From: Sandaracinaceae bacterium
Lineage (GTDB): Bacteria; Myxococcota_A; Polyangia; Polyangiales; Sandaracinaceae
DNA length: 11,093 nt
NCBI GenBank assembly: GCA_044220955.1
Contig: JBGAQA010000153.1
Coordinates: 1 to 11,093, forward strand
Direction of reading: 5' to 3'
A program made the position numbers and the translations under genes. How positions within the stretch are numbered: the first letter of the stretch is position 1; every line of letters starts with the position of its first letter. Under the pieces are notes generated by a model. It was given only the letters and a program-made list of their open reading frames with translations. It made no database searches and had not been told where the DNA came from. This document shows, one piece after another, positions 714-10,905 of this stretch.

Positions 714-2891
714 TCAGGCCCCACCCGGGATTGCCGCAGCGGCCGCTGGCGGGATCGTCGGCACAGGCAGCCCGGTGACGCTCGCGGCGCCGCCCGGCAC
801 GAGGCCGAGGTTCGACGCGATCCCCGCGAACAGGCCGGGCCAGGCGACGGGCATCGGGATCACGAACGTTCCGCCGTCCTGGTCGAGCAGCGTGTGCACG
901 TCGGCGCTCGCCGTCGCGTCGCCATTCAGGCAATTGGGCCGAACGATCGCCTGCGCGCCCACGCCGTCGCTCATCACCACGCTGCACTGGCCGGCGCACG
1001 TGCGCGCCGCGTCGAGCACGATGAAGTTCTGGTCGCCGGCGGTGATCGTTCCGTCGCCGTCGTCCCCGAAGTCGACCGAGTGCGCGCCGCCGTCGGTCGA
1101 CACCACGCGGACGTCGTCGGCGCGGCCGTCGGCGCGGATCAGCGTGCCCGAGAGCATCGAGCCGGCGACGAAGCCGTCTGCATCGACGAACGCGAGCGCG
1201 ACGCCGTGGGCGCCGCGGATCTCGGTGTGGATCACGCTCAGCTCCGCGCCGGTGTGCGCCTCGGCGCCGGCGGCCCCCGTGTCGTGGATCACGCCGTCCT
1301 GCAGCCGCACGCGCACGCCCGCGCCCTCGGCCACCACGCCGACGAGCGCGCCGTCGATCGCGACGCTCCGCAGCGTGATCGCCGTGGCGTCGCTCGTGAC
1401 GTAGATCCCCGACTGCGTCGCGCCCACGAAGGTGCCGCCGTCGATCGTGAGCGCTGCGTGGTCCTCGGCCTGGACCGCGAAGCGCCCGCCGGTGATGGTG
1501 AGCCCGGTCGCGTGCAGCGTCGCACCGCCCTCTTCGGCCACGCCGACCGAGTCCGCCGCCGGCGTGATCGCGATCCCGTCGAGCGTCGCCGTCGCCGTGT
1601 CACGGCTGGCGACGCCGGCCGTGGTGGTCCCACTCGTCGTGAAGCCCGCACCGGCCAGCGTGAGGGCGGAGGCGCCTGAAGCGAGCGCGCCGATCGCTCC
1701 GCCCGTGAGGCCGATCGTGGCGCCCATCGACACGATGCTGCTGTCCTGGACCGCGAGGTGGATGCTGCCGGCGCCTGCCGTGGAGGTGAGCGCGACGCCA
1801 CCGCTCGCGAAGGTGACCGCGCCGGCGGTTCCCATCGTGGGGTGGGGCGCGCTGACGACCCCGTACGGGACGTTGGTCGCGCTCGCCGCCGGGATGGTCA
1901 TCGTGTTGCCTGCTTCGACGGAGAGAGCCCCGCCGAAGAGCCCGAGCGAGACGATGTCGTGGCCCGTGAAGGTGCTGCCGCGCACCACCGCGTGCTCGAC
2001 TCCCTGGAATTCGATCCCGAACGACTCGTCGCCGCTGCCCTCGATCAGCGCGTCCTCGATCGTGACGCTGCCGCCCGACAGCAGGCTTCCCGTGTAGCGC
2101 GGCGCCCCGGTGAGCACGACGGGGACGAGCGAGTGGAAGCGCGAGCCGCGGATCTGCACGTCGCGGGCCGTGTCGGTCGTGTCCTCGATGCCGATCGCGA
2201 ACGAGAGCGCGTGCAGCTCGCCGCCCTGCATGTTCACCACGCGCGGGCGGCCGCGGATGCCGATGCCCGCGCCGCTTCCGTCGACGTCGAGGTCGGTCAG
2301 CAGCAGCGTGGTGCCCGAGCCCGAGAGAACGCCCACGCCGAGGGAAGGACCGCTTCCGTCCGCGCGCCGGGTCCCGCTCGCGAAGTCCGAGCTCTGCACC
2401 TCGAGCGTCGCTCCTCCGTCCACGAGCGTGGCGACGAGCACCGACTCGATCCGGACCGAGCGCAGCGTGGTGTGCCCCGCGCGCGCCACCACGCCGTAGA
2501 CGCAGCCTCGGACGACCAGCGACTCGAGCGTCACCGCGGCCGTCCCTGCGGTCACGACCACACCGCTCGCGTCGATCGTCGGGTAGCGATCGACGCCGCT
2601 GTCGACGCCGGTCGCGACGAGGCAGCTGCCCGCGGGGCCCGAGAGGGTGCTCGCGAGGCCGCCCGACGCGTCGGTCGCGCCGCGGAGCGTGACCGTGCGC
2701 GAGATGGGCGCCCGGGGGGGCGCGATCTCGCCGACGGGGAGGCAGATGGTCGCGCCCTCGGGGACCCGCGCGATCACGTCGTCGATCGACTCCCGGCCCG
2801 AGAGGGCGACGCAGTCGCCGCTGCCCGACGGGCCGCAGGCGAGCGCGCCGCAGAGCGCCAGCGCCGCGTGGAGGGCCCCTCTCAGCTGCAT
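714..2891 (-). CDS. Putative lipoprotein with right-handed parallel beta-helix (pectin-lyase-like) repeats, about 725 aa
   Basis: C-terminal part of ORF 714..3980. ATG at 2891 gives MQLRGALHAALALCGALAC (lipobox-like ALAC, Cys19). SIDDVIARVPEGATICL resembles a beta-helix N-cap. It is followed by many G/A/V/T/I-rich beta-strand repeats (e.g. VTIEDALIEGS, LTIDGGTFVGATQSGIYV). The start overlaps the upstream stop by 10 nt. Confidence 0.75.
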   Translation of the reverse strand: MQLRGALHAALALCGALACGPSGSGDCVALSGRESIDDVIARVPEGATICLPVGEIAPPRAPISRTVTLRGATDASGGLASTLSGPAGSCLVATGVDSGVDRYPTIDASGVVVTAGTAAVTLESLVVRGCVYGVVARAGHTTLRSVRIESVLVATLVDGGATLEVQSSDFASGTRRADGSGPSLGVGVLSGSGTTLLLTDLDVDGSGAGIGIRGRPRVVNMQGGELHALSFAIGIEDTTDTARDVQIRGSRFHSLVPVVLTGAPRYTGSLLSGGSVTIEDALIEGSGDESFGIEFQGVEHAVVRGSTFTGHDIVSLGLFGGALSVEAGNTMTIPAASATNVPYGVVSAPHPTMGTAGAVTFASGGVALTSTAGAGSIHLAVQDSSIVSMGATIGLTGGAIGALASGASALTLAGAGFTTSGTTTAGVASRDTATATLDGIAITPAADSVGVAEEGGATLHATGLTITGGRFAVQAEDHAALTIDGGTFVGATQSGIYVTSDATAITLRSVAIDGALVGVVAEGAGVRVRLQDGVIHDTGAAGAEAHTGAELSVIHTEIRGAHGVALAFVDADGFVAGSMLSGTLIRADGRADDVRVVSTDGGAHSVDFGDDGDGTITAGDQNFIVLDAARTCAGQCSVVMSDGVGAQAIVRPNCLNGDATASADVHTLLDQDGGTFVIPMPVAWPGLFAGIASNLGLVPGGAASVTGLPVPTIPPAAAAAIPGGA

Positions 2892-4039
2892 GTGCCGTCC
2901 GTCCTGCACGTCGTCGGGGCGGGGCACACGCTCGCGTCGAGGCGGCAGTCGAGCTGGCAGTAGCCGCCGCCCAGGTTGCACACCTGGCCGCTCGGGCACG
3001 GCGTCGAGGCGTCGCACCCGGCGAAGCAAGCGCCCGTGTGCACCACGGTCTGGAGCCAGCGTGACGTCGCGCCGGGGATCATCCCCGTCACGCAGTGCTG
3101 GTTCGGGCCGCACGGGTCCGGCATCCCCTCGAACGCCGACGTGTTGCAGAAGCGCATCGCGCAGGTGCCTCCGTTGCACAGGCCGTAGCCGAAGGGGCTC
3201 GGGCAGTCGTCGTTGCGCGTGCAGCGGTCGCCGACGTGCGCAGCGGGGTTGCCGCTCACGTAGGCATGATCGTTGAACCACGCGCAGTGGCCCGTCGTGC
3301 TCAGGCCGCCGGGGTCGGCGTCGAAGGGAACACAGATCTGTCCGTTCAAGCAGGCGCCACCGGCGCGCGGTCCCGTGGCGTCGATGCCCGGCGTGCAGCT
3401 CCGCGCGCACGCGAAGGTGAGCACGTCCGCGCGATCGTCGAGCGACTCCCCGACGCACGCCTCGCCGCTCGCGCACGCATAGCTTCCGCCGCGGTCGCAG
3501 TCGTCCTCTTGGCAGCGGCCTGCGAAACAGCTGCCACGCGGCGGCCGGCAGTCGGCGTCCGTGGTGCAGTCGTCGTCGACGTGCGCGCCGGGGTTGCTCC
3601 CCGTGATGCAGTCGCCGGTCGTCGCGTCGCAGTACCCGCTGTCGCAGATCGCGTCGTCGCATCGGAACGCGGTGCACAGGCCGTCGTAGCGGCACCCGTA
3701 GTAGGCCGACGTGTCCGTCCCGCAGGCGGTCTGCACGTCCACGGTCCGGTCGCAGGCACGGAGGCAGCTGAAGATCCACCCCGTCGCGGTGGCGTCGCTG
3801 GGGCCGCAGCGCGATCCGCCGGGGCAGTCGTCGTCGACGGTGCAGCGCCGCGTACACACGTGGTCGAGGTCGACGATCGACACGATCGAGCTGCACGTCA
3901 GGCCGAGGGCGCAGGACTGGTCCCCCGTGCAGCGCGCGCCGACGCCCCCCGGGCTCGCGCCGGGCTCTGCGCTCCGGCATCCGGCGATGCCGGTCGCGAG
4001 CGCGAGCAGCGCCAAGGATCGTCCGATGGTGGATCGCAA
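2882..4039 (-). CDS. Cysteine-rich (disulfide-rich) lipoprotein, about 385 aa
   Basis: C-terminal part of ORF 2882..6478. TTG at 4039 is preceded by an SD-like GGGAGGGG (alternative start GTG 4057). Signal MRSTIGRSLALLALATGIAGC has lipobox IAGC. I count 45 Cys, with repeated CTxDxDC motifs. Confidence 0.8.
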   Translation of the reverse strand: MRSTIGRSLALLALATGIAGCRSAEPGASPGGVGARCTGDQSCALGLTCSSIVSIVDLDHVCTRRCTVDDDCPGGSRCGPSDATATGWIFSCLRACDRTVDVQTACGTDTSAYYGCRYDGLCTAFRCDDAICDSGYCDATTGDCITGSNPGAHVDDDCTTDADCRPPRGSCFAGRCQEDDCDRGGSYACASGEACVGESLDDRADVLTFACARSCTPGIDATGPRAGGACLNGQICVPFDADPGGLSTTGHCAWFNDHAYVSGNPAAHVGDRCTRNDDCPSPFGYGLCNGGTCAMRFCNTSAFEGMPDPCGPNQHCVTGMIPGATSRWLQTVVHTGACFAGCDASTPCPSGQVCNLGGGYCQLDCRLDASVCPAPTTCRTDGTCS

Positions 4040-4060
4040 GGCGAGGACCCCTCCCACGCC

Positions 4061-4089
4061 ATCTTCCGAGGGGCGTTCGCCGCGGTCAA
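4061..4089 (-). promoter_or_regulatory. Putative sigma70-like promoter TTGACC-N17-GAAGAT for the lipoprotein operon
   Basis: Minus-strand TTGACC (4089-4084), exactly 17 nt spacer, GAAGAT (4066-4061). The predicted TSS falls at about the SD-like element. Confidence 0.4.
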
Positions 4090-4093
4090 CCTG

Positions 4094-4099
4094 TATGCT
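4094..4099 (+). promoter_or_regulatory. Putative -10 element (TATGCT) for the kinase gene, possibly leaderless
   Basis: TAnnnT hexamer 6 nt before in-frame GTG 4106. No SD. Confidence 0.4.
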
Positions 4100-4105
4100 G
4101 CGTGC

Positions 4106-6568
4106 GTGAACGAACGCGACGCGGGCAAGGGGCCGCCGAGCGCGCTCGAGCGGACGCTCCACCTCGGCGGCGCGGAGTCGCGTCCCGCGTCGGTTTCTGT
4201 CGGTGAGGTGAGCGCTGGCGCGCTCGATCACACGGTCGACGTGTCGCAGTCCGCCGGCTCGAGCGCGATGCCGGTGACGGCGGTGCACGGACCGGCGGCA
4301 GTGCCGGCGGCGGTGCCGGCGCTGCCCGCGAGCATCTCGCGCTACGTGATCGCCGAAGAGCTCGGGCGCGGGGCGCAGGGCGTCGTGGTCCGGGCGCGCG
4401 ACGGCATCCTCGAGCGCGACGTGGCGCTGAAGATCACGCACTCGGGCGAGAGCGGTAGTGACTCGATCTCGCGGTTCGTGCGCGAGGCCCGGACGATGGC
4501 GCGCATGACGCACCCCAACATCGTGCCGGTCTACGACGCGGGCGTCCTGCCCGACGGGCGGGCGTTCTACTCGATGCCGGTGCTGCCGAACCGGACGTTT
4601 CGCGACGTGCTCGACGAGCGGAACACCGGCACCGACGACGCCGAGCACGCCCTGGTGCGGCTCTTGCGTTCGTTCTCGAGCGTCTGCATGGGGATCGAGG
4701 CCGCCCACGCCGCCGGGGTCCTCCACCGCGATCTGAAGCCCGCGAACCTCGTCTACGGAACGCGCGGCGAGATCATGGTCGGCGACTTCGGGCTCGCGCG
4801 CGCGCTCGACGCGATCACGCGCAACACGGGCGTCACCGTCGGGACGCCGCTCTACATGTCTCCAGAGCAAGCGCGCGGCGCGGCCGACGTCGGGCCGGCG
4901 ACGGACGTCTACGCGCTCGGCGTCATCCTCTACGAGATCCTGACCGGCGGGCTGCCGCTGGTGCGCTCGACGTTCATCGAGCAGGTGCTGGCGCTCGTCG
5001 ACGTGGCCCCGGACCCGCCGACCCCGCGCTTTCCGGGGCTGATCGTGCCGCCGGACCTCGCGGCGCTGGCGATGCGCTGCCTGGCCAAGAGCCCGGCCGA
5101 GCGGCCTGGGAGCGCGCGCGTGCTCGTGGACGAGGTCGACGCGTGGCTCGAGGGGCGCCACGAGCGCGACCGTCGCAAGGCCGAGGTGGAGCGCCTCTTG
5201 GGCTGTGCGCGCCACGCGCTGGCCGAGAGCGCGAGGGGCCGCGCGACCATCGTTGCGGATCGACGCGACGTGCTCGATCGGCTCGCGGCGCTGCCGGAGC
5301 ACGCCAGCATCGAGCGCAAGGCGCCCGTGTGGCGCGAGCTCGACGCGGTCGAGGGGCGCTCGCGCGAGCTGCGGCGTGCGGAGGACGACGCGATGGTGCT
5401 GCTCGAGTCTGCCTTGCGCGTGGAGCCCTCGAGCGCGCCGGTGCGCAAGCTGCTCGCCCAGCTGCACCTCGCGCGGATGGCGCGCTGCGAGGACCAGCGG
5501 GACCGCGACGGAGCGCTCGAGGAGGCGCGGCGCGCGCGCGGCGCGGATCCCGAGACGAGCGCGCAGGTGCTCGATCGGACCGGCTGGTTGCGCCTCGTGC
5601 TCGCGGGGGCGAGCTACTTCGACCTCGACGTGTTCGAGGAGCGCGACCGGACGCTGGTCCCCGTGGCCGTGCGCGCGTCGATCCCGGGCGGCGAAGCGAT
5701 CGCGGTGGCGCCGGGGAGCTACCGCGTGCGGGCGCGCTCGCCGGGCGGCGTCGAGGTGGTGCTGCCTCTCTTCTTCCGTCGCGGCGACGAGCTCGCCCTC
5801 GCGCTCGACGTGGCGCCCGCCGATCGCGCGCCGCCGGGCTTCGTGTACGTGCCGGGCGGGCCGGCGCTGCTCGGGGGCGACGCGGAGTCGCCGTACTCGG
5901 ACCCGGAGCGCGAGGCGGCCGTTCCCGGCCTCTACGTGATGCGCGATCCGGTCTCGTGCGGCGACTACGCGGAGTTCCTCGAGGCCCTCGCGCTCCGCGA
6001 TCCGGCCGAGGCGCTGGCGCGCGCGCCGCGCGTCTCGAACGACGCGGCGCCGTACTGGAGGCTCGAGGACGGGCGCATCGTGCTGCCGCGTGCCGACGAG
6101 CAGGGCGACGAGTGGCGCGCGGACTTCCCCGTGCTCAGCATTTCGGCGCTCGACGCCGAGGCGTTCGCGGCGTGGAGAACGGTGATCGAGGGCCGCTCGC
6201 TGCGGCTGCCGACGGACGTGGAGTGGGAGCGGGCAGGGCGGGGCGCCGACGGTCGCACCTACCCGTGGGGGCACCACTTCGATCCGGCGTTCTGCAAGAT
6301 GCGGCTCTCCCGGCCCGGTGATCCTTCGCCCGAGCCGATCGGCAGCTTCCCTACGGACGTGTCGGTCTTCGGCGTGCGCGACCTCGCGGGCGGCGTCGCC
6401 GAGTGGACCGCCTCGCCCTACCGCAGCGACCCGGCGCAGCGCTCGGTGCGCGGCGGCTCGTGGGGCACGCGGGCGCACCGCTGCGCGCTGACGTTCCGCG
6501 GCATCGCGACGGCCGACACGCCGAGCTCCGACCTCGGCTTCCGTCTGGTGCTGAGCCTGAGCGACTGA
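4106..6568 (+). CDS. Hanks-type Ser/Thr protein kinase fused to a C-terminal formylglycine-generating-enzyme (FGE/SUMF1) family domain, about 820 aa
   Basis: Kinase motifs: ELGRGAQGVV, VALK, HPNIV, HRDLKPAN, DFGLAR, GTPLYMSPEQ, DVYALG. FGE-family motifs: FVYVPGG, RLPTDVEWE, YPWG, DLAGGVAEW, RGGSW, GFRL. Start uncertain (GTG 4106 or ATG 4268). The ORF-track extension to 3095 overlaps the antisense Cys-rich gene. Confidence 0.92.
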   Translation: MNERDAGKGPPSALERTLHLGGAESRPASVSVGEVSAGALDHTVDVSQSAGSSAMPVTAVHGPAAVPAAVPALPASISRYVIAEELGRGAQGVVVRARDGILERDVALKITHSGESGSDSISRFVREARTMARMTHPNIVPVYDAGVLPDGRAFYSMPVLPNRTFRDVLDERNTGTDDAEHALVRLLRSFSSVCMGIEAAHAAGVLHRDLKPANLVYGTRGEIMVGDFGLARALDAITRNTGVTVGTPLYMSPEQARGAADVGPATDVYALGVILYEILTGGLPLVRSTFIEQVLALVDVAPDPPTPRFPGLIVPPDLAALAMRCLAKSPAERPGSARVLVDEVDAWLEGRHERDRRKAEVERLLGCARHALAESARGRATIVADRRDVLDRLAALPEHASIERKAPVWRELDAVEGRSRELRRAEDDAMVLLESALRVEPSSAPVRKLLAQLHLARMARCEDQRDRDGALEEARRARGADPETSAQVLDRTGWLRLVLAGASYFDLDVFEERDRTLVPVAVRASIPGGEAIAVAPGSYRVRARSPGGVEVVLPLFFRRGDELALALDVAPADRAPPGFVYVPGGPALLGGDAESPYSDPEREAAVPGLYVMRDPVSCGDYAEFLEALALRDPAEALARAPRVSNDAAPYWRLEDGRIVLPRADEQGDEWRADFPVLSISALDAEAFAAWRTVIEGRSLRLPTDVEWERAGRGADGRTYPWGHHFDPAFCKMRLSRPGDPSPEPIGSFPTDVSVFGVRDLAGGVAEWTASPYRSDPAQRSVRGGSWGTRAHRCALTFRGIATADTPSSDLGFRLVLSLSD

Positions 6569-6572
6569 CCGG

Positions 6573-7811
6573 CTACTCGCGCGTGCTGGCGCGCGCCGGG
6601 CCGGCCGCCGGCTCGAGCAGTGCCGCCACGCGGTCGAGGATTCGGTCGGCCGTGTCGCGCTTGGCGAGCGTGCCGAGCTTGGTGACGCCCTTCTTGTCGA
6701 CGAAGGCGACGTCGCTCGCGTCGCCCTCGAAGGCGACCGACGCGTGGTTGGCCACGATCAGGTCCGCGCCCTTGGACGCGAGCTTCTTCTTCGCCGACTC
6801 GAGCAGCTTCTCCGTCTCGACGGCGAAGCCCACGAGCACGGGGCGGCGACTCCGCGCGGCCTTCCGATCGGCGCCGAGCGTCGCGAGGATGTCGGGGTTA
6901 CGCACCAGCTCCACGGTGCGCGCCTCGTCGCCCCTGGGCTGCTTCTTCTGCTTCGAGGAGGCGACCTCGCGCGGACGGAAGTCGGCCACCGCGGCGGCCA
7001 TGATGACCGCGTCGGCCCCGTCCTCGGGTCCGAGCCGGAGCTCGATCGCGTCCTGCATCTCGAGCGCCGTCTTCACGCGGATGAGCTCGACGCCGCTCGG
7101 CACCGGGAGGGACACCGGACCGCTGACCAGGATGACGCGCGCGCCCCGGTCGGCGGCGCGCGCGGCGATGGCGTAGCCCATCTTGCCGCTCGAGCGGTTG
7201 CCCACGAAGCGGACCGGATCGATCGGCTCGTGCGTCGGTCCCGCCGACACGAGGATCGTCGCGCCGGCGAGATCCTTGCGGCTGAGCGCGTGGATCGCGG
7301 CCTCTGCGATCCGCTCGGGCTCGGCCATGCGGCCGGCGCCCTCGTCGCCGCTCGCGAGGGCGCCGTGCACGGGTCCGACGAAGGCGACGTCGCGCTGGCG
7401 CAGCGTCTCGACGTTCTCTTGCGTCGCCGGGTGCTCCCACATGCGCGTGTGCATCGCCGGGGCGACGGTGACCTGGCCGCGCGCGCAGAGCAGCGTCGCG
7501 CTCACGATGTCGTCCGCGAGCCCGTGCGCCATCTTCGCGAGCACGTTCGCGGTCGCGGGCGCGACCAGCAGCAGGTCGGCCCACGCGGCGAGCTCGACGT
7601 GGGCCTCACCCCCCGATGCGTCGCTGAGATCGACGATCGGCGTGCTGCCGAGCAAGCCGGCGAAGGTGAGCGGTCCGACGAAGCGCTGCGCGCTCGCGGT
7701 CATGGCGACCCGCACCTCCGCGCCCCGGCGCACCAGCTCGCGAGCGATGATGGGGGCCTTGTAGGCGGCGATGCCGCCGGTGACGAGCAGGGCGATGCGC
7801 GGCGGGGTCAT
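6573..7811 (-). CDS. coaBC: Bifunctional phosphopantothenoylcysteine decarboxylase / phosphopantothenate-cysteine ligase
   Basis: 412 aa. CoaC motifs: VTGGIAAYK, HVELA, VAPATAN, PAMHTRMW, LASGDEGAGRM (this last one has S where the canonical LACGDxGxGR has the catalytic Cys). CoaB motifs: SAGPTHEPIDPVRFVGNRSSGKMG, AAAVADF, NPDIL, GFAVET, DLIVAN. Confidence 0.97.
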   Translation of the reverse strand: MTPPRIALLVTGGIAAYKAPIIARELVRRGAEVRVAMTASAQRFVGPLTFAGLLGSTPIVDLSDASGGEAHVELAAWADLLLVAPATANVLAKMAHGLADDIVSATLLCARGQVTVAPAMHTRMWEHPATQENVETLRQRDVAFVGPVHGALASGDEGAGRMAEPERIAEAAIHALSRKDLAGATILVSAGPTHEPIDPVRFVGNRSSGKMGYAIAARAADRGARVILVSGPVSLPVPSGVELIRVKTALEMQDAIELRLGPEDGADAVIMAAAVADFRPREVASSKQKKQPRGDEARTVELVRNPDILATLGADRKAARSRRPVLVGFAVETEKLLESAKKKLASKGADLIVANHASVAFEGDASDVAFVDKKGVTKLGTLAKRDTADRILDRVAALLEPAAGPARASTRE

Positions 7812-7818
7812 CGCGGCG

Positions 7819-7827
7819 GTGGTAGCA
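7819..7827 (-). promoter_or_regulatory. Putative extended -10 (TGC-TACCAC) for coaBC, possibly leaderless
   Basis: Minus strand reads TGCTACCAC-N7-ATG. The last base deviates from the consensus T. No SD. The context resembles that of def (GCTACC...CGATGACC in both). Confidence 0.25.
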
Positions 7828-7916
7828 CGAGGTCCAGGGGGGGTGAGGCAGGGGTGTGAGCGAGAGCGAGGCGGGGCGCGGCTCCCTCGGCCACGAGGGT
7901 GGGAAAGCGTTGGGTC

Positions 7917-8007
7917 GAGGTCGAGAACGAGGTCGAGAGCGAGGTCGAGAACGAGGTCGAGAACGAGGTCGAGAACGAGGTCGAGAACGAGGTCGAGAAC
8001 GAGGTCG
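7917..8007 (+). repeat. Tandem 12-mer array (GAGGTCGAGAAC)x7 plus a partial unit, equal to 15 GAGnnC hexamers
   Basis: Units start at 7917, 7929 (variant GAGAGC), 7941, 7953, 7965, 7977 and 7989, with a partial unit at 8001-8007. Intergenic. A small GAGCGAGAGCGAG patch also lies at 7858-7870. Confidence 0.95.
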
Positions 8008-8036
8008 CGATCCTCTCGACGCCCAGCGGTTCCGCG

Positions 8037-8648
8037 TCACGTCGGCCAGCCGCTCTCCTCCGGGCTCCACTCGTCGGCCTTCCACCACGGCCGCGGACCG
8101 AAGAACGCCGCGATCGTGACGTCGTCGGGCTGGAGCGTCCAGCGCTCGGCGCCTCGGTACCCACCGAACCCCGCCTCGCGGACCAGGCAGCCCGTTGCGC
8201 TCACGTGCTCCCCCGGGCGGATCGTCGCCGTGCAGCGCCGCACGAGATCGCGATCGGGGACAGCCCGCGCGATCTCCTCGGTCCGGATCGCCATCTTCGT
8301 GGTGTCGACCGCGACGCGGCCGGCCGGAGTGACGATGAAGAAGGGACGCGTCGCGATGCGTCGCCCCGTCTCGGTCCAGACCGTGTAGCGGTGGTGCTTG
8401 CGCCGAAGGCGCGAGCCGACTTGATCGATGGTGAGCGTCGCGATCGGATCCGCATCCACGGCGACCGCCACGCCGACGATGCGTGCAGGGCCCTCGGTCA
8501 GTCGATCCGTCGGCTCCTCGTCGACTCCCCGCGCGAGCGTTCGACGAAGCAACGTCTGGACGAGGATCGGGGGCGCGACGAGCACCAGCCAGATCAGCGC
8601 GATCACCCCCGCGAGGAGCGGGAGGAGGGAGACGATCTCGGGCCGCAT
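8037..8648 (-). CDS. Membrane-anchored hypothetical protein, GIDE-domain-like, 203 aa
   Basis: SD-like GAGGAAG upstream. N-terminal hydrophobic segment (LLPLLAGVIALIWLVLVAPPIL). The motifs PFFIVTPAGRVAVD and TIRPGEHVSATG resemble bacterial GIDE-like domains; this was recognised by eye and not searched. Confidence 0.6.
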   Translation of the reverse strand: MRPEIVSLLPLLAGVIALIWLVLVAPPILVQTLLRRTLARGVDEEPTDRLTEGPARIVGVAVAVDADPIATLTIDQVGSRLRRKHHRYTVWTETGRRIATRPFFIVTPAGRVAVDTTKMAIRTEEIARAVPDRDLVRRCTATIRPGEHVSATGCLVREAGFGGYRGAERWTLQPDDVTIAAFFGPRPWWKADEWSPEESGWPT

Positions 8649-8700
8649 CGAGCTTCCTCGCCGGGTCGAACGCGGCGGAGCACTGGTCTATTCGAGCGTC

Positions 8701-8724
8701 GCCCTCGCTCTCGCCCTCGCTCTC
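8701..8724 (-). repeat. Short inverted hexamer array (GCCCTC GCTCTC)x2, i.e. GAGnnC on the minus strand
   Basis: Read directly. It abuts, and overlaps by 2 nt, the coaBC 5' duplicate. Confidence 0.85.
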
Positions 8725-8815
8725 ATGGCGACCCGCACCTTCGCGCCCTGGCACACCAGCTCGCGCGCGATGACGGGGGACTCGTAGGCGGCGACGCCGC
8801 CTGCGCGGTCATCGC
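8723..8815 (-). pseudogene. coaBC: Decayed duplicate of the coaBC 5' end (first ~37 codons)
   Basis: 8723-8801 aligns ungapped to 7700-7778 with 8 mismatches in 79 nt (GGVAAYESPVIARELVCQGAKVRVAM vs GGIAAYKAPIIARELVRRGAEVRVAM). Two deletions of about 17 and 5 nt separate this block from a retained ATG at 8812, causing a frameshift. Confidence 0.9.
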
Positions 8816-8834
8816 CGCCGCTCCCCGAGCAGCG

Positions 8835-9356
8835 TCACCCCTGGCTGCCCTGGAGCACGATCGGGTAGACGATCACGGTCTCGGCGCCGCGCGAGGGGCA
8901 GTACGTCGCGCCGCGCAGCGCGTCGACGACGCTCCCGCTCGCGGCCGAGTCGACCGTGCTCGACACCACGGTCGCGGAGGTGACCTCGCCCGTCGCGCCG
9001 ACGACCAGGCGGACGACGACGCGGCCTGTCGCGGAGCACGTCGTGGAGAGCGGATGCAGTGCGAGCCGCACGCGGTCGCGGATCGCGGCCGTCGGGCTGT
9101 CCCCGTCGGGCGGGCAGTCGCGCGCCGCGGGCGGCGCCTCGCTCGTGCTCCCCGGCATGCACGCGAGCGCGTCGTCCTCGAAGTCGTACTCGCTCGCGCC
9201 TCCGCTGCTCGGCGCATCGCCCGCCGAGCTCGTCGCGTCGTCACCGCCCGAGCTGCTCGCGGACGAGGCGCCCGTCGATGACGACGAGGGGCCCCCGCAA
9301 GCGGCGAGCGCCAGCGCGCTCGAGACGACGACCAGAGCCCTCGAAGAACGCCGCAT
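8835..9356 (-). CDS. Lipoprotein with a Ser/Gly-rich linker and an AgmX/PglI (TonB C-terminal-like) domain, 173 aa
   Basis: Strong SD GGGAGGT and lipobox LAAC (Cys20). The C-terminus GRVVVRLVVGATGEVTSATVVSST...VIVYPIVL fits the TonB-C-like / myxobacterial AgmX-PglI tail pattern. Confidence 0.75.
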   Translation of the reverse strand: MRRSSRALVVVSSALALAACGGPSSSSTGASSASSSGGDDATSSAGDAPSSGGASEYDFEDDALACMPGSTSEAPPAARDCPPDGDSPTAAIRDRVRLALHPLSTTCSATGRVVVRLVVGATGEVTSATVVSSTVDSAASGSVVDALRGATYCPSRGAETVIVYPIVLQGSQG

Positions 9357-9498
9357 CCGTACCTCCCAGCCGGACGTCCGTCCGGTTGGGTGAGCGTACC
9401 GGTGGAGAAGGATCGGGCGCTCGGAGGCCCGTGCCCACGGTCACACGGTGGCGGCGCGGTTGACGACTCCGTCGCGGCCGACCACCGGCCCCGCTCGC

Positions 9499-10818
9499 CT
9501 ACCGCGCCATGGGGTTCCAGAACTCGATCGGCACCGTCACCTCGAGCCGCGTACGCCCGGCGAACAGGCCGCTCGGCACCGGGTCGAGCGGGAGGGCGCG
9601 GTCGAGCGCGGCGCGGGCCGCGGCGTCCAGATCCGAGAAGCCGCTGGTCCGGATCAGGCGCGGGCTGCCCTCGATCGATCCGTCGCGGCGCACGGTGAGG
9701 CGGAAGACGCTCGTGCCCTGATCCATCGCGAGCTGGCGGGCGCGCGGGAATTCGAGGACGTCGGTGACGCGCCGTCGGAGCGCGCCGAGCCAGCGCACGT
9801 AGCGCGCGTCGCTCGTGTCGAGGGCCGCGAAGGGGCCCGGTCCATCGCCCCGCGCCAGCGCGCGGCCGCCCTCGCGCACGCCGCCGCCGCTGCCCGTCGG
9901 TCCGGCTCCCGTGACGCCCCCCACCCCGTCTCCCGTGCGCGGCGCCGATCGCTCCGTGGCCTCGACGAGCGACTGGGAGGGCGAGGTCGCGAGCAGCTCC
10001 GAGCGGCGCTCGTCGCGCGGGCGGTCGCGCACCTGGGTCGTGGTCGCGGCGGGGCCGAGGTCCACCTGCGGTCGGCCGAACGCCACGGCCGCCGCCTCGC
10101 TCGCGCGCGTGCCGCTGCCGTCGAGGATGCCGACGCCGGGAGAGTCCGCCGTGGCGCCCGGTTCGGTCCGGGCCTCGACGCCGGCGCGCGGCTCGGTCTG
10201 GAGGTCGCCCGCCTGCGTGGGGCTCGCGCCGCCCGCGCTGCTGGCGTCGGGCGCGCGCTCGGCGCCCTCGGTCGCGTCGAGCGCCGCGAGCGTCCTGCGC
10301 TCGCGGTGCGGACCGCTGCCCGACGCGAGGAAGGGCTCGTCGTGCGGCGAGGGCGTCGCGCGACGGTCCTCCCACGATGCGCGATCGCGCGCGGTGTCGA
10401 TGCGCTGGGTCTGGCCGACGCCCGTCGCGTTGAGCGTGGCGTCGGTGAGCGTGAGCGGCGCGTCACTCGGCAGGAGCAAGAGCACCGCGCTCGCGCCCAC
10501 GCCGTCGCCGCCACGGCCCGGGTCGTCGGCATCGACGTTCTGCGGCGACTCCGCCCCGCCCGGCGACAGGCGTGCGGCGGGCGTGTCCGCCAGCGCCGCG
10601 CCGTCGTGCGCCGGGCCGTCCCCGGCCCTCAGGTCGATCTCGAACGTCGTCAGTCGCGGGGGCAGGGGCGGGGCGTCCCCGACGCGCGGCATGACCCACA
10701 CGGCGCCGACGTGCGCGACGAGCGAGAGGAGCGCGAAGCTCGCGAGCGCGCGCGTCGCATCGCGCGATCCGGGCTCTCGGCCGGGGCGGCGGGCATGGCG
10801 ACGGGCACGGGGTCCCAT
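9499..10818 (-). CDS. TonB-family energy-transducer-like protein, 439 aa
   Basis: Single N-terminal TM helix with an SxxxH motif (LLSLVAHVGAVW), a long low-complexity periplasmic linker, and a TonB C-terminal domain (FPRARQLAMDQGTSVFRLTVRRDGSI...TSGFSDLDAAARAAL). Confidence 0.85.
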   Translation of the reverse strand: MGPRARRHARRPGREPGSRDATRALASFALLSLVAHVGAVWVMPRVGDAPPLPPRLTTFEIDLRAGDGPAHDGAALADTPAARLSPGGAESPQNVDADDPGRGGDGVGASAVLLLLPSDAPLTLTDATLNATGVGQTQRIDTARDRASWEDRRATPSPHDEPFLASGSGPHRERRTLAALDATEGAERAPDASSAGGASPTQAGDLQTEPRAGVEARTEPGATADSPGVGILDGSGTRASEAAAVAFGRPQVDLGPAATTTQVRDRPRDERRSELLATSPSQSLVEATERSAPRTGDGVGGVTGAGPTGSGGGVREGGRALARGDGPGPFAALDTSDARYVRWLGALRRRVTDVLEFPRARQLAMDQGTSVFRLTVRRDGSIEGSPRLIRTSGFSDLDAAARAALDRALPLDPVPSGLFAGRTRLEVTVPIEFWNPMAR

Positions 10819-10824
10819 ACCTCT

Positions 10825-10830
10825 ACTGTA
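10825..10830 (-). promoter_or_regulatory. Putative -10 element (TACAGT) for the TonB-family gene, possibly leaderless
   Basis: Minus strand reads TACAGT-AGAGGT-ATG, a 6-nt spacer. The GAGG is too close to the ATG to serve as an SD. Confidence 0.45.
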
Positions 10831-10876
10831 CGCCGCGGGCCACCAGGGTTCCCGTGGATCGTGCCGGGCGGTTTTG

Positions 10877-10905
10877 TTGACCGCCGGGGCCCCGGTGTCG
10901 AACCT
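10877..10905 (+). promoter_or_regulatory. Putative promoter TTGACC-N17-GAACCT
   Basis: TTGACC at 10877-10882, 17-nt spacer, GAACCT at 10900-10905, then 6 nt to ATG 10912. Confidence 0.4.

Follow-up and report, generated by a model that had tools for sequence, protein, structure and literature searches.

In contig C59 of the Sandaracinaceae genome G000 (∼7.5 Mb, 72.5% G+C, 301 contigs), the coaBC gene is separated from its ancestral neighbour, a tonB-like gene, by two accessory genes and by a dead copy of its own 5′ end, which abuts an array of GAGnnC hexamers. The whole contig, 11,093 nt long, was analysed and is called the window here. We favour, with modest confidence, the explanation that the copy is the trimmed remainder of a one-off tandem duplication that arose through microhomology at the array, in a slot where genes turn over. 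The array here likely served as a breakpoint rather than as an attachment site, and coaBC was never interrupted. An earlier note on this DNA had read the locus as a non-autonomous cassette, bounded by inverted arrays, which brought a new promoter and a replacement 5′ end for coaBC.

Two genes were gained between tonB and coaBC

On the minus strand the genes run in the order tonB-like, lipoprotein-like, cargo and coaBC (Table 1). We compared the locus with five congeners (G001 to G005, G003 being the closest relative) and with L047, the sole metagenome locus found. In G002, G003, G004, G005 and L047 the tonB-like gene runs straight into coaBC, and the arrangement around coaBC in G001 is different. 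These five loci thus show an empty site, a check that the earlier note had asked for, instead of sharing the arrangement of the window. Since tonB directly precedes coaBC in them, the lipoprotein gene is no ancestral neighbour of coaBC but belongs to the gain, which measures ∼1.65 kb. This displaces both the supposed extent of the cassette (∼0.9–1.0 kb) and the supposed ancestral operon, in which the lipoprotein gene was followed directly by coaBC. Neither the cargo nor the lipoprotein has a close match in the congeners (best 31–36% identity, and E 1e-5), and the different cargo expected at this slot was found neither among the five congeners nor in L047. The tonB–coaBC gap of G003 already holds a GAGAGC array, oriented like the array at 8699–8724.

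Immediately before coaBC, all five congeners have a CGTGCTA-type box, which also precedes the intact gene here and is missing before the dead copy. The intact gene thus retains the ancestral promoter-like box, and what had been taken for a new promoter is the conserved one. We infer that the box may be a promoter; a generic sigma-70 scan predicted none.

The locus recurs in independent assemblies. Contigs from four runs of four studies, one of which may be the source sample, were aligned to 8010–10900. One X1 contig spans 8120–10464 with no differences and one X2 contig spans 8591–10900 with eight; run X9 covers the stretch in short pieces only. Together the X1 and X2 contigs bridge tonB, lipoprotein, copy and cargo, and an X5 contig bridges cargo and copy. 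The locus is therefore not misassembled, an outcome the earlier note had allowed for, since single contigs in two studies run from the cargo through array, copy and lipoprotein to tonB. The join from the array at 7916–8007 to coaBC lies outside the aligned stretch; the evidence for it is this assembly together with synteny.

The dead copy shares the lineage of the resident coaBC and ends at an array

The copy forms a direct repeat with the intact gene (7689–7778 and 8712–8801) of 90 nt at 88% identity and an offset of 1023 bp, which a gapped alignment extends to 7782/8805. Its local alignment score of 114, compared with control maxima of 37 and 30, places the repeat beyond chance. The copy begins with an ATG at 8812, 22 nt past the lipoprotein stop (8835), and a net 22-nt deletion follows and shifts the frame. 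Outside this deletion there are eight differences, of which seven are non-synonymous on the copy and one is synonymous. As the repeats are only 88% alike and one is frameshifted, they are not a live att pair. One low-depth X5 contig has an extra base at 8780, within the copy. A functional 29-codon peptide encoded by the copy was considered and rejected (synonymous excess in its own frame, P 0.18; best of six frames, an antisense shadow, P 0.02).

At third-codon positions the copy equals intact coaBC at 25/27 sites, whereas each of the two agrees with the five congeners at only 14–17/27 (the L047 row was misaligned and was dropped). The copy therefore descends from the coaBC lineage of this genome itself. 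In the intact gene, nothing points to a 5′ end of foreign origin, because the identity of its first block to G003, G005 and G002 (71, 67 and 65 of 82 positions) falls within the range for the rest of the gene (52–74, 61–73 and 59–73, respectively). With no dip in identity, and with synonymous sites shared with the copy, the proposed replacement of the coaBC 5′ end is not borne out. A donor from the same species is a possibility for the intact 5′ end.

Two facing, inverted arrays (7916–8007 and 8699–8724) surround the cargo reading frame (8037–8648), and the exact homology of the copy ends at 8723, at the start of the second array. Beyond this break, 8/11 of the next bases of intact coaBC still agree with the array, so that the break lies within microhomology. 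On each strand the 9-nt motif at the junction, GCGAGnGCG, has a density of 0.68 per kb; from this we estimate a chance of roughly 1 in 250 that it would fall no further than one array period from the break. In these respects alignment confirmed the earlier description of a decayed copy offset by 1023 bp, ending at a GAGnnC array, with inverted arrays around one gene.

Table 1. Features of the coaBC locus (window coordinates)
Feature	Position	Strand	Remarks
coaBC, intact, 412 aa	6573..7811	-	Flavoprotein and DFP domains; 73–87% identity to congeners
5′ block of intact coaBC, repeated at 8712–8805	7689..7782	-	last 11 nt bear the array-like GCGAGCGCG motif
Promoter-like box CGTGCTA, immediately upstream of coaBC	7823..7829	-	kept in congeners, not before dead copy; putative function
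GAGnnC remnant, two units	7858..7870	+	sequence
GAGnnC array GAGGTC/GAGAAC, 12-mer ×7.7	7916..8007	+	orientation of the genome majority for the region
Accessory membrane gene (cargo), GIDE-like family, 203 aa, predicted	8037..8648	-	lacks 68 codons at 8120/8121 present in other strains
Short GAGAGC/GAGGGC array, junction with dead copy	8699..8724	-	oriented like the array that G003 has between tonB and coaBC
Dead coaBC 5′ copy	8723..8812	-	ATG, net 22-nt deletion, 7 non-synonymous changes; 29-codon reading frame in shifted frame, running up to the array
Accessory lipoprotein-like gene	8835..9356	-	weak TonB_C / AgmX-PglI C-terminal domain; within gain
TonB C-terminal domain protein	9499..10818	-	the gene that ancestrally preceded coaBC in this genus

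Tandem duplication compared with stacking of alleles

We propose that the two accessory genes would have entered the tonB–coaBC slot separately. A tandem duplication would have joined coaBC codons 38–41 to the upstream hexamer array through their short sequence likeness, by template switching or end joining, and a later deletion would have removed the promoter of the first copy and all of that copy except 90 nt. Both the order of these events and the mechanism of the junction are proposed from the sequence that survives.

Possible, although rather unlikely, is a route to the same sequence in which two alleles were stacked, or a circle integrated once in Campbell fashion. A strain with tonB–lipoprotein–coaBC would have recombined with one carrying tonB–array–cargo–array–coaBC, and the dead copy would once have been the functional start of one of the alleles. 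The exchange would have been homologous at one end and illegitimate at the other, where it joined the array, or would have used a chance 1023-bp circle, for example from a conspecific. A single step of this kind would account for both genes and the copy, and it fits the short distance of 22 nt between the lipoprotein stop and the copy ATG, the shared lineage of copy and intact gene, and the slots with species-dependent cargo that are known in the genus (on C254 of G000, compared with G002, G004 and G005). However, neither single-gene allele is among the contigs listed, where X1 and X2 run from tonB through lipoprotein and copy to the cargo and X5 joins cargo to copy. In addition, the lipoprotein allele would need to have lost the box that all five congeners kept.

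GAGnnC arrays across the genome

G000 has 192 strong GAGnnC arrays, 52 of them at contig ends. The pattern is found in 4/5 congeners and 0/25 other relatives, with the backwards control also frequent in G003, G004 and one other genus. Array pairs up to 3 kb apart are mostly direct (22/26) and seldom inverted (4/26), which rules out the arrays as terminal inverted repeats, and pairs on the same contig agree in orientation in 98 cases and disagree in 31. In a projection onto contig 1 of G005, covering 2.0 Mb, 24/29 arrays pointed one way before a GC-skew switch near 750 kb and 41/45 the opposite way past it, neighbouring arrays not being independent. This suggests that array orientation is linked to the direction of replication. 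The array at 8699–8724 is among the few that run counter to the trend. In 65/74 of the arrays projected on G005, the GAG strand goes with the G-rich strand, changing sides where the GC skew switches.

The same arrays accompany cassettes of four-helix-bundle genes (TIGR02436), which occur singly or as convergent twins: 17 of the 20 gene matches have a GAGnnC array within 900 nt. Examples are L058:4700-5480 (C5), L059 (C247) and L060 (C282). The C5 copy is a clean insertion, missing between the same neighbours in four congeners, and no gene-end duplicate was found at this site. At one further site G005 has a four-helix-bundle gene with an array and G000 an array alone. The arrays are probably genus-specific, strand-polarised simple repeats at variable intergenic slots, seeded by four-helix-bundle cassettes. 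The view of inverted arrays as cassette borders thus survives in part: the same arrays flank multi-copy four-helix-bundle insertions, but inverted pairs are the minority. A second dispersed repeat of ∼140 nt abuts arrays at C255 15817-16183 (in tandem), C233 38153-38357, C53 11227-11349 and C28 5870-6003. Another dispersed family of ∼200 nt is unlinked to arrays (C10 14610-14764, C111 22648-22834, C22 32426-32602 and about 15 more).

Arrays are enriched at gained genes, not at duplicated gene ends

We scored the intervals of 664 ortholog pairs that are neighbours in G005. Arrays were present in 6/42 intervals with extra G000 DNA compared with 3/622 others, and a hand count of arrays per gap gave 8/112. 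This comparison used crude gene calls and one genome (G005), left gains unpolarised and missed arrays at contig ends. At slots with gained genes, arrays are about 15- to 30-fold more frequent; 36 of the 42 gains relative to G005 carry no array.

Gene-end duplicates did not follow the arrays in the same way. A flank duplicate was seen at 0/5 other array-bearing gains and at 1/36 array-less gains, and at none of 17 other scored cargo-family loci (20 examined, two unscored for short flanks). No second 5′ fragment lies beside coaBC in 30 other family genomes (coaBC found in 28; G042 left out), and the second coaBC matches in four congeners are a flavoprotein paralog. Of the local direct repeats, 628 in number, five come within 30 nt of an array; the one at coaBC alone consists of a gene-end remnant and encloses an array pair. 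Abutting repeats were found at 68/322 array flanks compared with 197/1500 controls, these being partly four-helix-bundle arms; local abutting repeats were not commoner at arrays (2/322 vs 19/1500 controls). Recent dispersed duplicates other than four-helix-bundle genes stand beside an array in 5/131 cases (3.8%), compared with a baseline of 233/6330 genes (3.7%). The suggestion that arrays go with variable genes and duplicated gene ends therefore held for gained-gene slots (6/42 vs 3/622) and failed for gene ends, which were not recurrently duplicated at other arrays, gains or cargo-family loci.

These counts bear on an unlikely alternative in which ∼190 arrays act as shared recombination handles for cassette traffic, with no dedicated recombinase, and the coaBC copy is a by-product. 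The excess of arrays at gains favours it, as do the proximity of four-helix-bundle matches to arrays, the clean C5 insertion, and two loci described below, on C254 and in G003. Conversely, non-four-helix-bundle duplicates beside arrays are at baseline, cargo-family genes in G004 and other genera occupy variable slots with no flanking arrays, and the genome lacks a close second copy of the cargo. Moreover, arrays could merely grow or survive in new neutral spacers. An extended form, which we find doubtful, would have arrays spread by four-helix-bundle cassettes as a recombinase-free system of this myxobacterial genus that captures and drops unrelated genes in the gaps between core genes and sometimes duplicates neighbouring gene ends, at coaBC and possibly at a GIDE-like gene in G003.

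Several observations weigh against the preferred explanation, a one-off duplication at the array. No full tandem intermediate was seen, and a path of duplication and then deletion would need two or three events. Six of the seven changes on the copy fall at codon position 1, which plain decay would not predict. A purine-rich run precedes the copy ATG 22 nt behind the lipoprotein stop, like an operonic start. With the coaBC locus set aside, arrays are still present at 5/41 gains vs 3/622 (P 3.5e-5). A second inverted array pair holds a deleted gene copy (C254 10736-11103), which is an internally deleted, 92–95% identical copy of a C226 gene. In G003 a cargo-family gene is bracketed by arrays, with a possible 14-nt gene-end repeat: the 14 nt after the first array match the 3′ end of the neighbour at 12 positions. 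Only 3/5795 gene ends match as well, in a case that was picked post hoc, and the unanchored alignment score was reached by 37/1500 controls. The arrays may thus do more than break accidentally.

The inverted pair on C254 spans 10593-11182 (L061:4590-5185), and the C226 gene that it resembles (67636-69063; L202) itself terminates close to an array and has no counterpart at the syntenic position in congeners. The G003 case (L204:4354-5660, on C518) has two direct arrays, and its slot is empty in G000 C199. Two slots, C254 10577-12678 and 14891-16383 of G000, hold different genes from those in G004 C272 (L207) and are empty in G002 and G005; at the second, arrays are present in G000, G003 and G004.

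A hypothetical mobile element with coaBC as its target

Protein-coding genes that serve as targets also keep partial duplicates after an element integrates. The locus could be a non-autonomous integrative element that carried a replacement coaBC 5′ end and a promoter, used att-like targeting and was mobilised in trans; we regard this as very improbable. The gene-end direct repeat around accessory DNA and the empty site in relatives are as it would predict. Partial duplication of the target on integration is established for tRNA genes (PMC9897764). Two weak matches to the Y1 transposase family (PF01797) lie elsewhere in the genome, on C77 and C231. Against this, the repeat is diverged and frameshifted, no replacement end of element origin is seen, and the gain stretches past the repeat-bounded unit, with the lipoprotein gene outside the repeats. 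There is also no recurrence at coaBC in the 30 family genomes, at other arrays or at other cargo-family genes. As the earlier note had stated, there is no recombinase among the eight window proteins scanned against Pfam. No excision joint or ∼1023-bp circle was found among the joints listed, which come from contigs over 8010–10900, a stretch that does not include intact coaBC.

The cargo is an accessory gene in decay

A search for relatives of the cargo gave 136 at E ≤0.001, mostly of 350–380 aa compared with 203 aa here. The cargo itself has no Pfam match to GIDE (PF12483), whereas 3/17 aligned relatives do (best E 1.3e-4), and its Atlas neighbours (0.93–0.95), mostly from Myxococcota, carry GIDE on 12–25% of members. 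The relative P0002 has 68 extra residues where the X2 and X5 contigs carry 202 extra letters (8120/8121), and these two contigs in turn lack 8245–8590 of the cargo. None of the listed contigs over 8120 (X1, X2 and X5) has the 8120/8121 join of the window. As X1 also diverges from the window at 8120, the 204-nt gap either belongs to this strain alone or reflects an error of assembly. The cargo is a predicted accessory membrane gene that is decaying through strain-specific deletions. That this unshared join points to the whole locus being an artefact of the metagenome bin is so improbable as to be nearly negligible, given the single contigs that bridge it in two studies and a copy that differs from coaBC at 12% of sites plus a deletion.

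The cargo family is patchy, with members in 14/32 family genomes at E 1e-15 (a tally that includes G000 and G042), and it sits at different sites in G003 and G004. A peptide-pattern search found no close relatives of the cargo in GTDB. In G000 it has no close second copy, and the interior of the array-bounded segment is single-copy. Neither cargo nor lipoprotein matches TIGR02436, C59 has no four-helix-bundle match, and a spacer search found no four-helix-bundle leader or arm sequence in this slot. The spacer at 7812–8040 folds no better than shuffled sequences (z 0.61).

Relation to known systems

Tandem duplications with microhomology junctions have been described in bacteria, with template-switching and end-joining classes (10.64898/2026.05.22.727201). 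Our locus resembles them in repeating neighbouring DNA with short homology at the inner junction and no long flanking repeat or recombinase. It differs in that only a 90-nt remnant is present, flanked on either side by unrelated genes, and in that its junction is with a hexamer array specific to the genus. Integrative elements that leave fragments of target genes, as portrayed for tRNA genes in PMC9897764, likewise place accessory DNA between a working end and a dead copy and have empty sites. Unlike such elements, the coaBC locus has no integrase, measures 1 kb, occurs once, shows a diverged and frameshifted repeat and involves a gain larger than the repeat unit.

The likeness to the array-flanked four-helix-bundle (TIGR02436, IVS/Avd-like) cassettes lies in GAGnnC arrays at both borders, a position between conserved genes and the lack of a recombinase. 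In contrast to those cassettes, the coaBC slot is single-copy and has no TIGR02436 gene, leader or arm. REPINs, with their RAYT transposases (PMC3116915), are also abundant short extragenic repeats that sometimes form inverted pairs around DNA, and G000 has Y1-family genes. However, REPINs are inverted doublets of fixed spacing, whereas GAGnnC arrays are non-palindromic tandem hexamers of variable length that are mostly co-oriented. The TAACTGA direct repeats of Beggiatoaceae (PMC4679880) are similarly confined to one lineage, abundant and arranged in tandem between genes, and a part in rearrangement has been suggested for them. Those sets are oriented to start codons, whereas GAGnnC arrays take their orientation from the GC-skew strand and have a link to four-helix-bundle cassettes. 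A literature search, mostly outside subscription papers, found nothing on GAGnnC arrays, array-flanked four-helix-bundle cassettes or coaBC as an integration site.

A single duplication scar is ordinary, and the value of this one is as a test of what hexamer arrays do. The locus presents an array as a likely rearrangement breakpoint beside an essential gene. If arrays did drive gains, simple repeats would be a route for gene traffic without a recombinase; within one genome, the duplicate test argues against this.

Other features of the window

The peptide deformylase gene at 111–686 is also bracketed, by a plus-strand array at 1–85 and a short minus-strand array at 687–710. This gene, def, adjoins coaBC in G001 and is located elsewhere in G002 and G005. 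An Rfam search gave no matches in the window, and a profile search gave a weak myxo_SS_tail match, which, like the Atlas neighbours of the cargo, fits a likely myxobacterial genome. The congeners lack a syntenic counterpart of the region 714–6568, where beta-helix, Cys-rich and kinase-FGE genes are located. Within it, a Cys-rich repeat lipoprotein-like reading frame at 2882–4039, with no Pfam match, overlaps a beta-helix gene.

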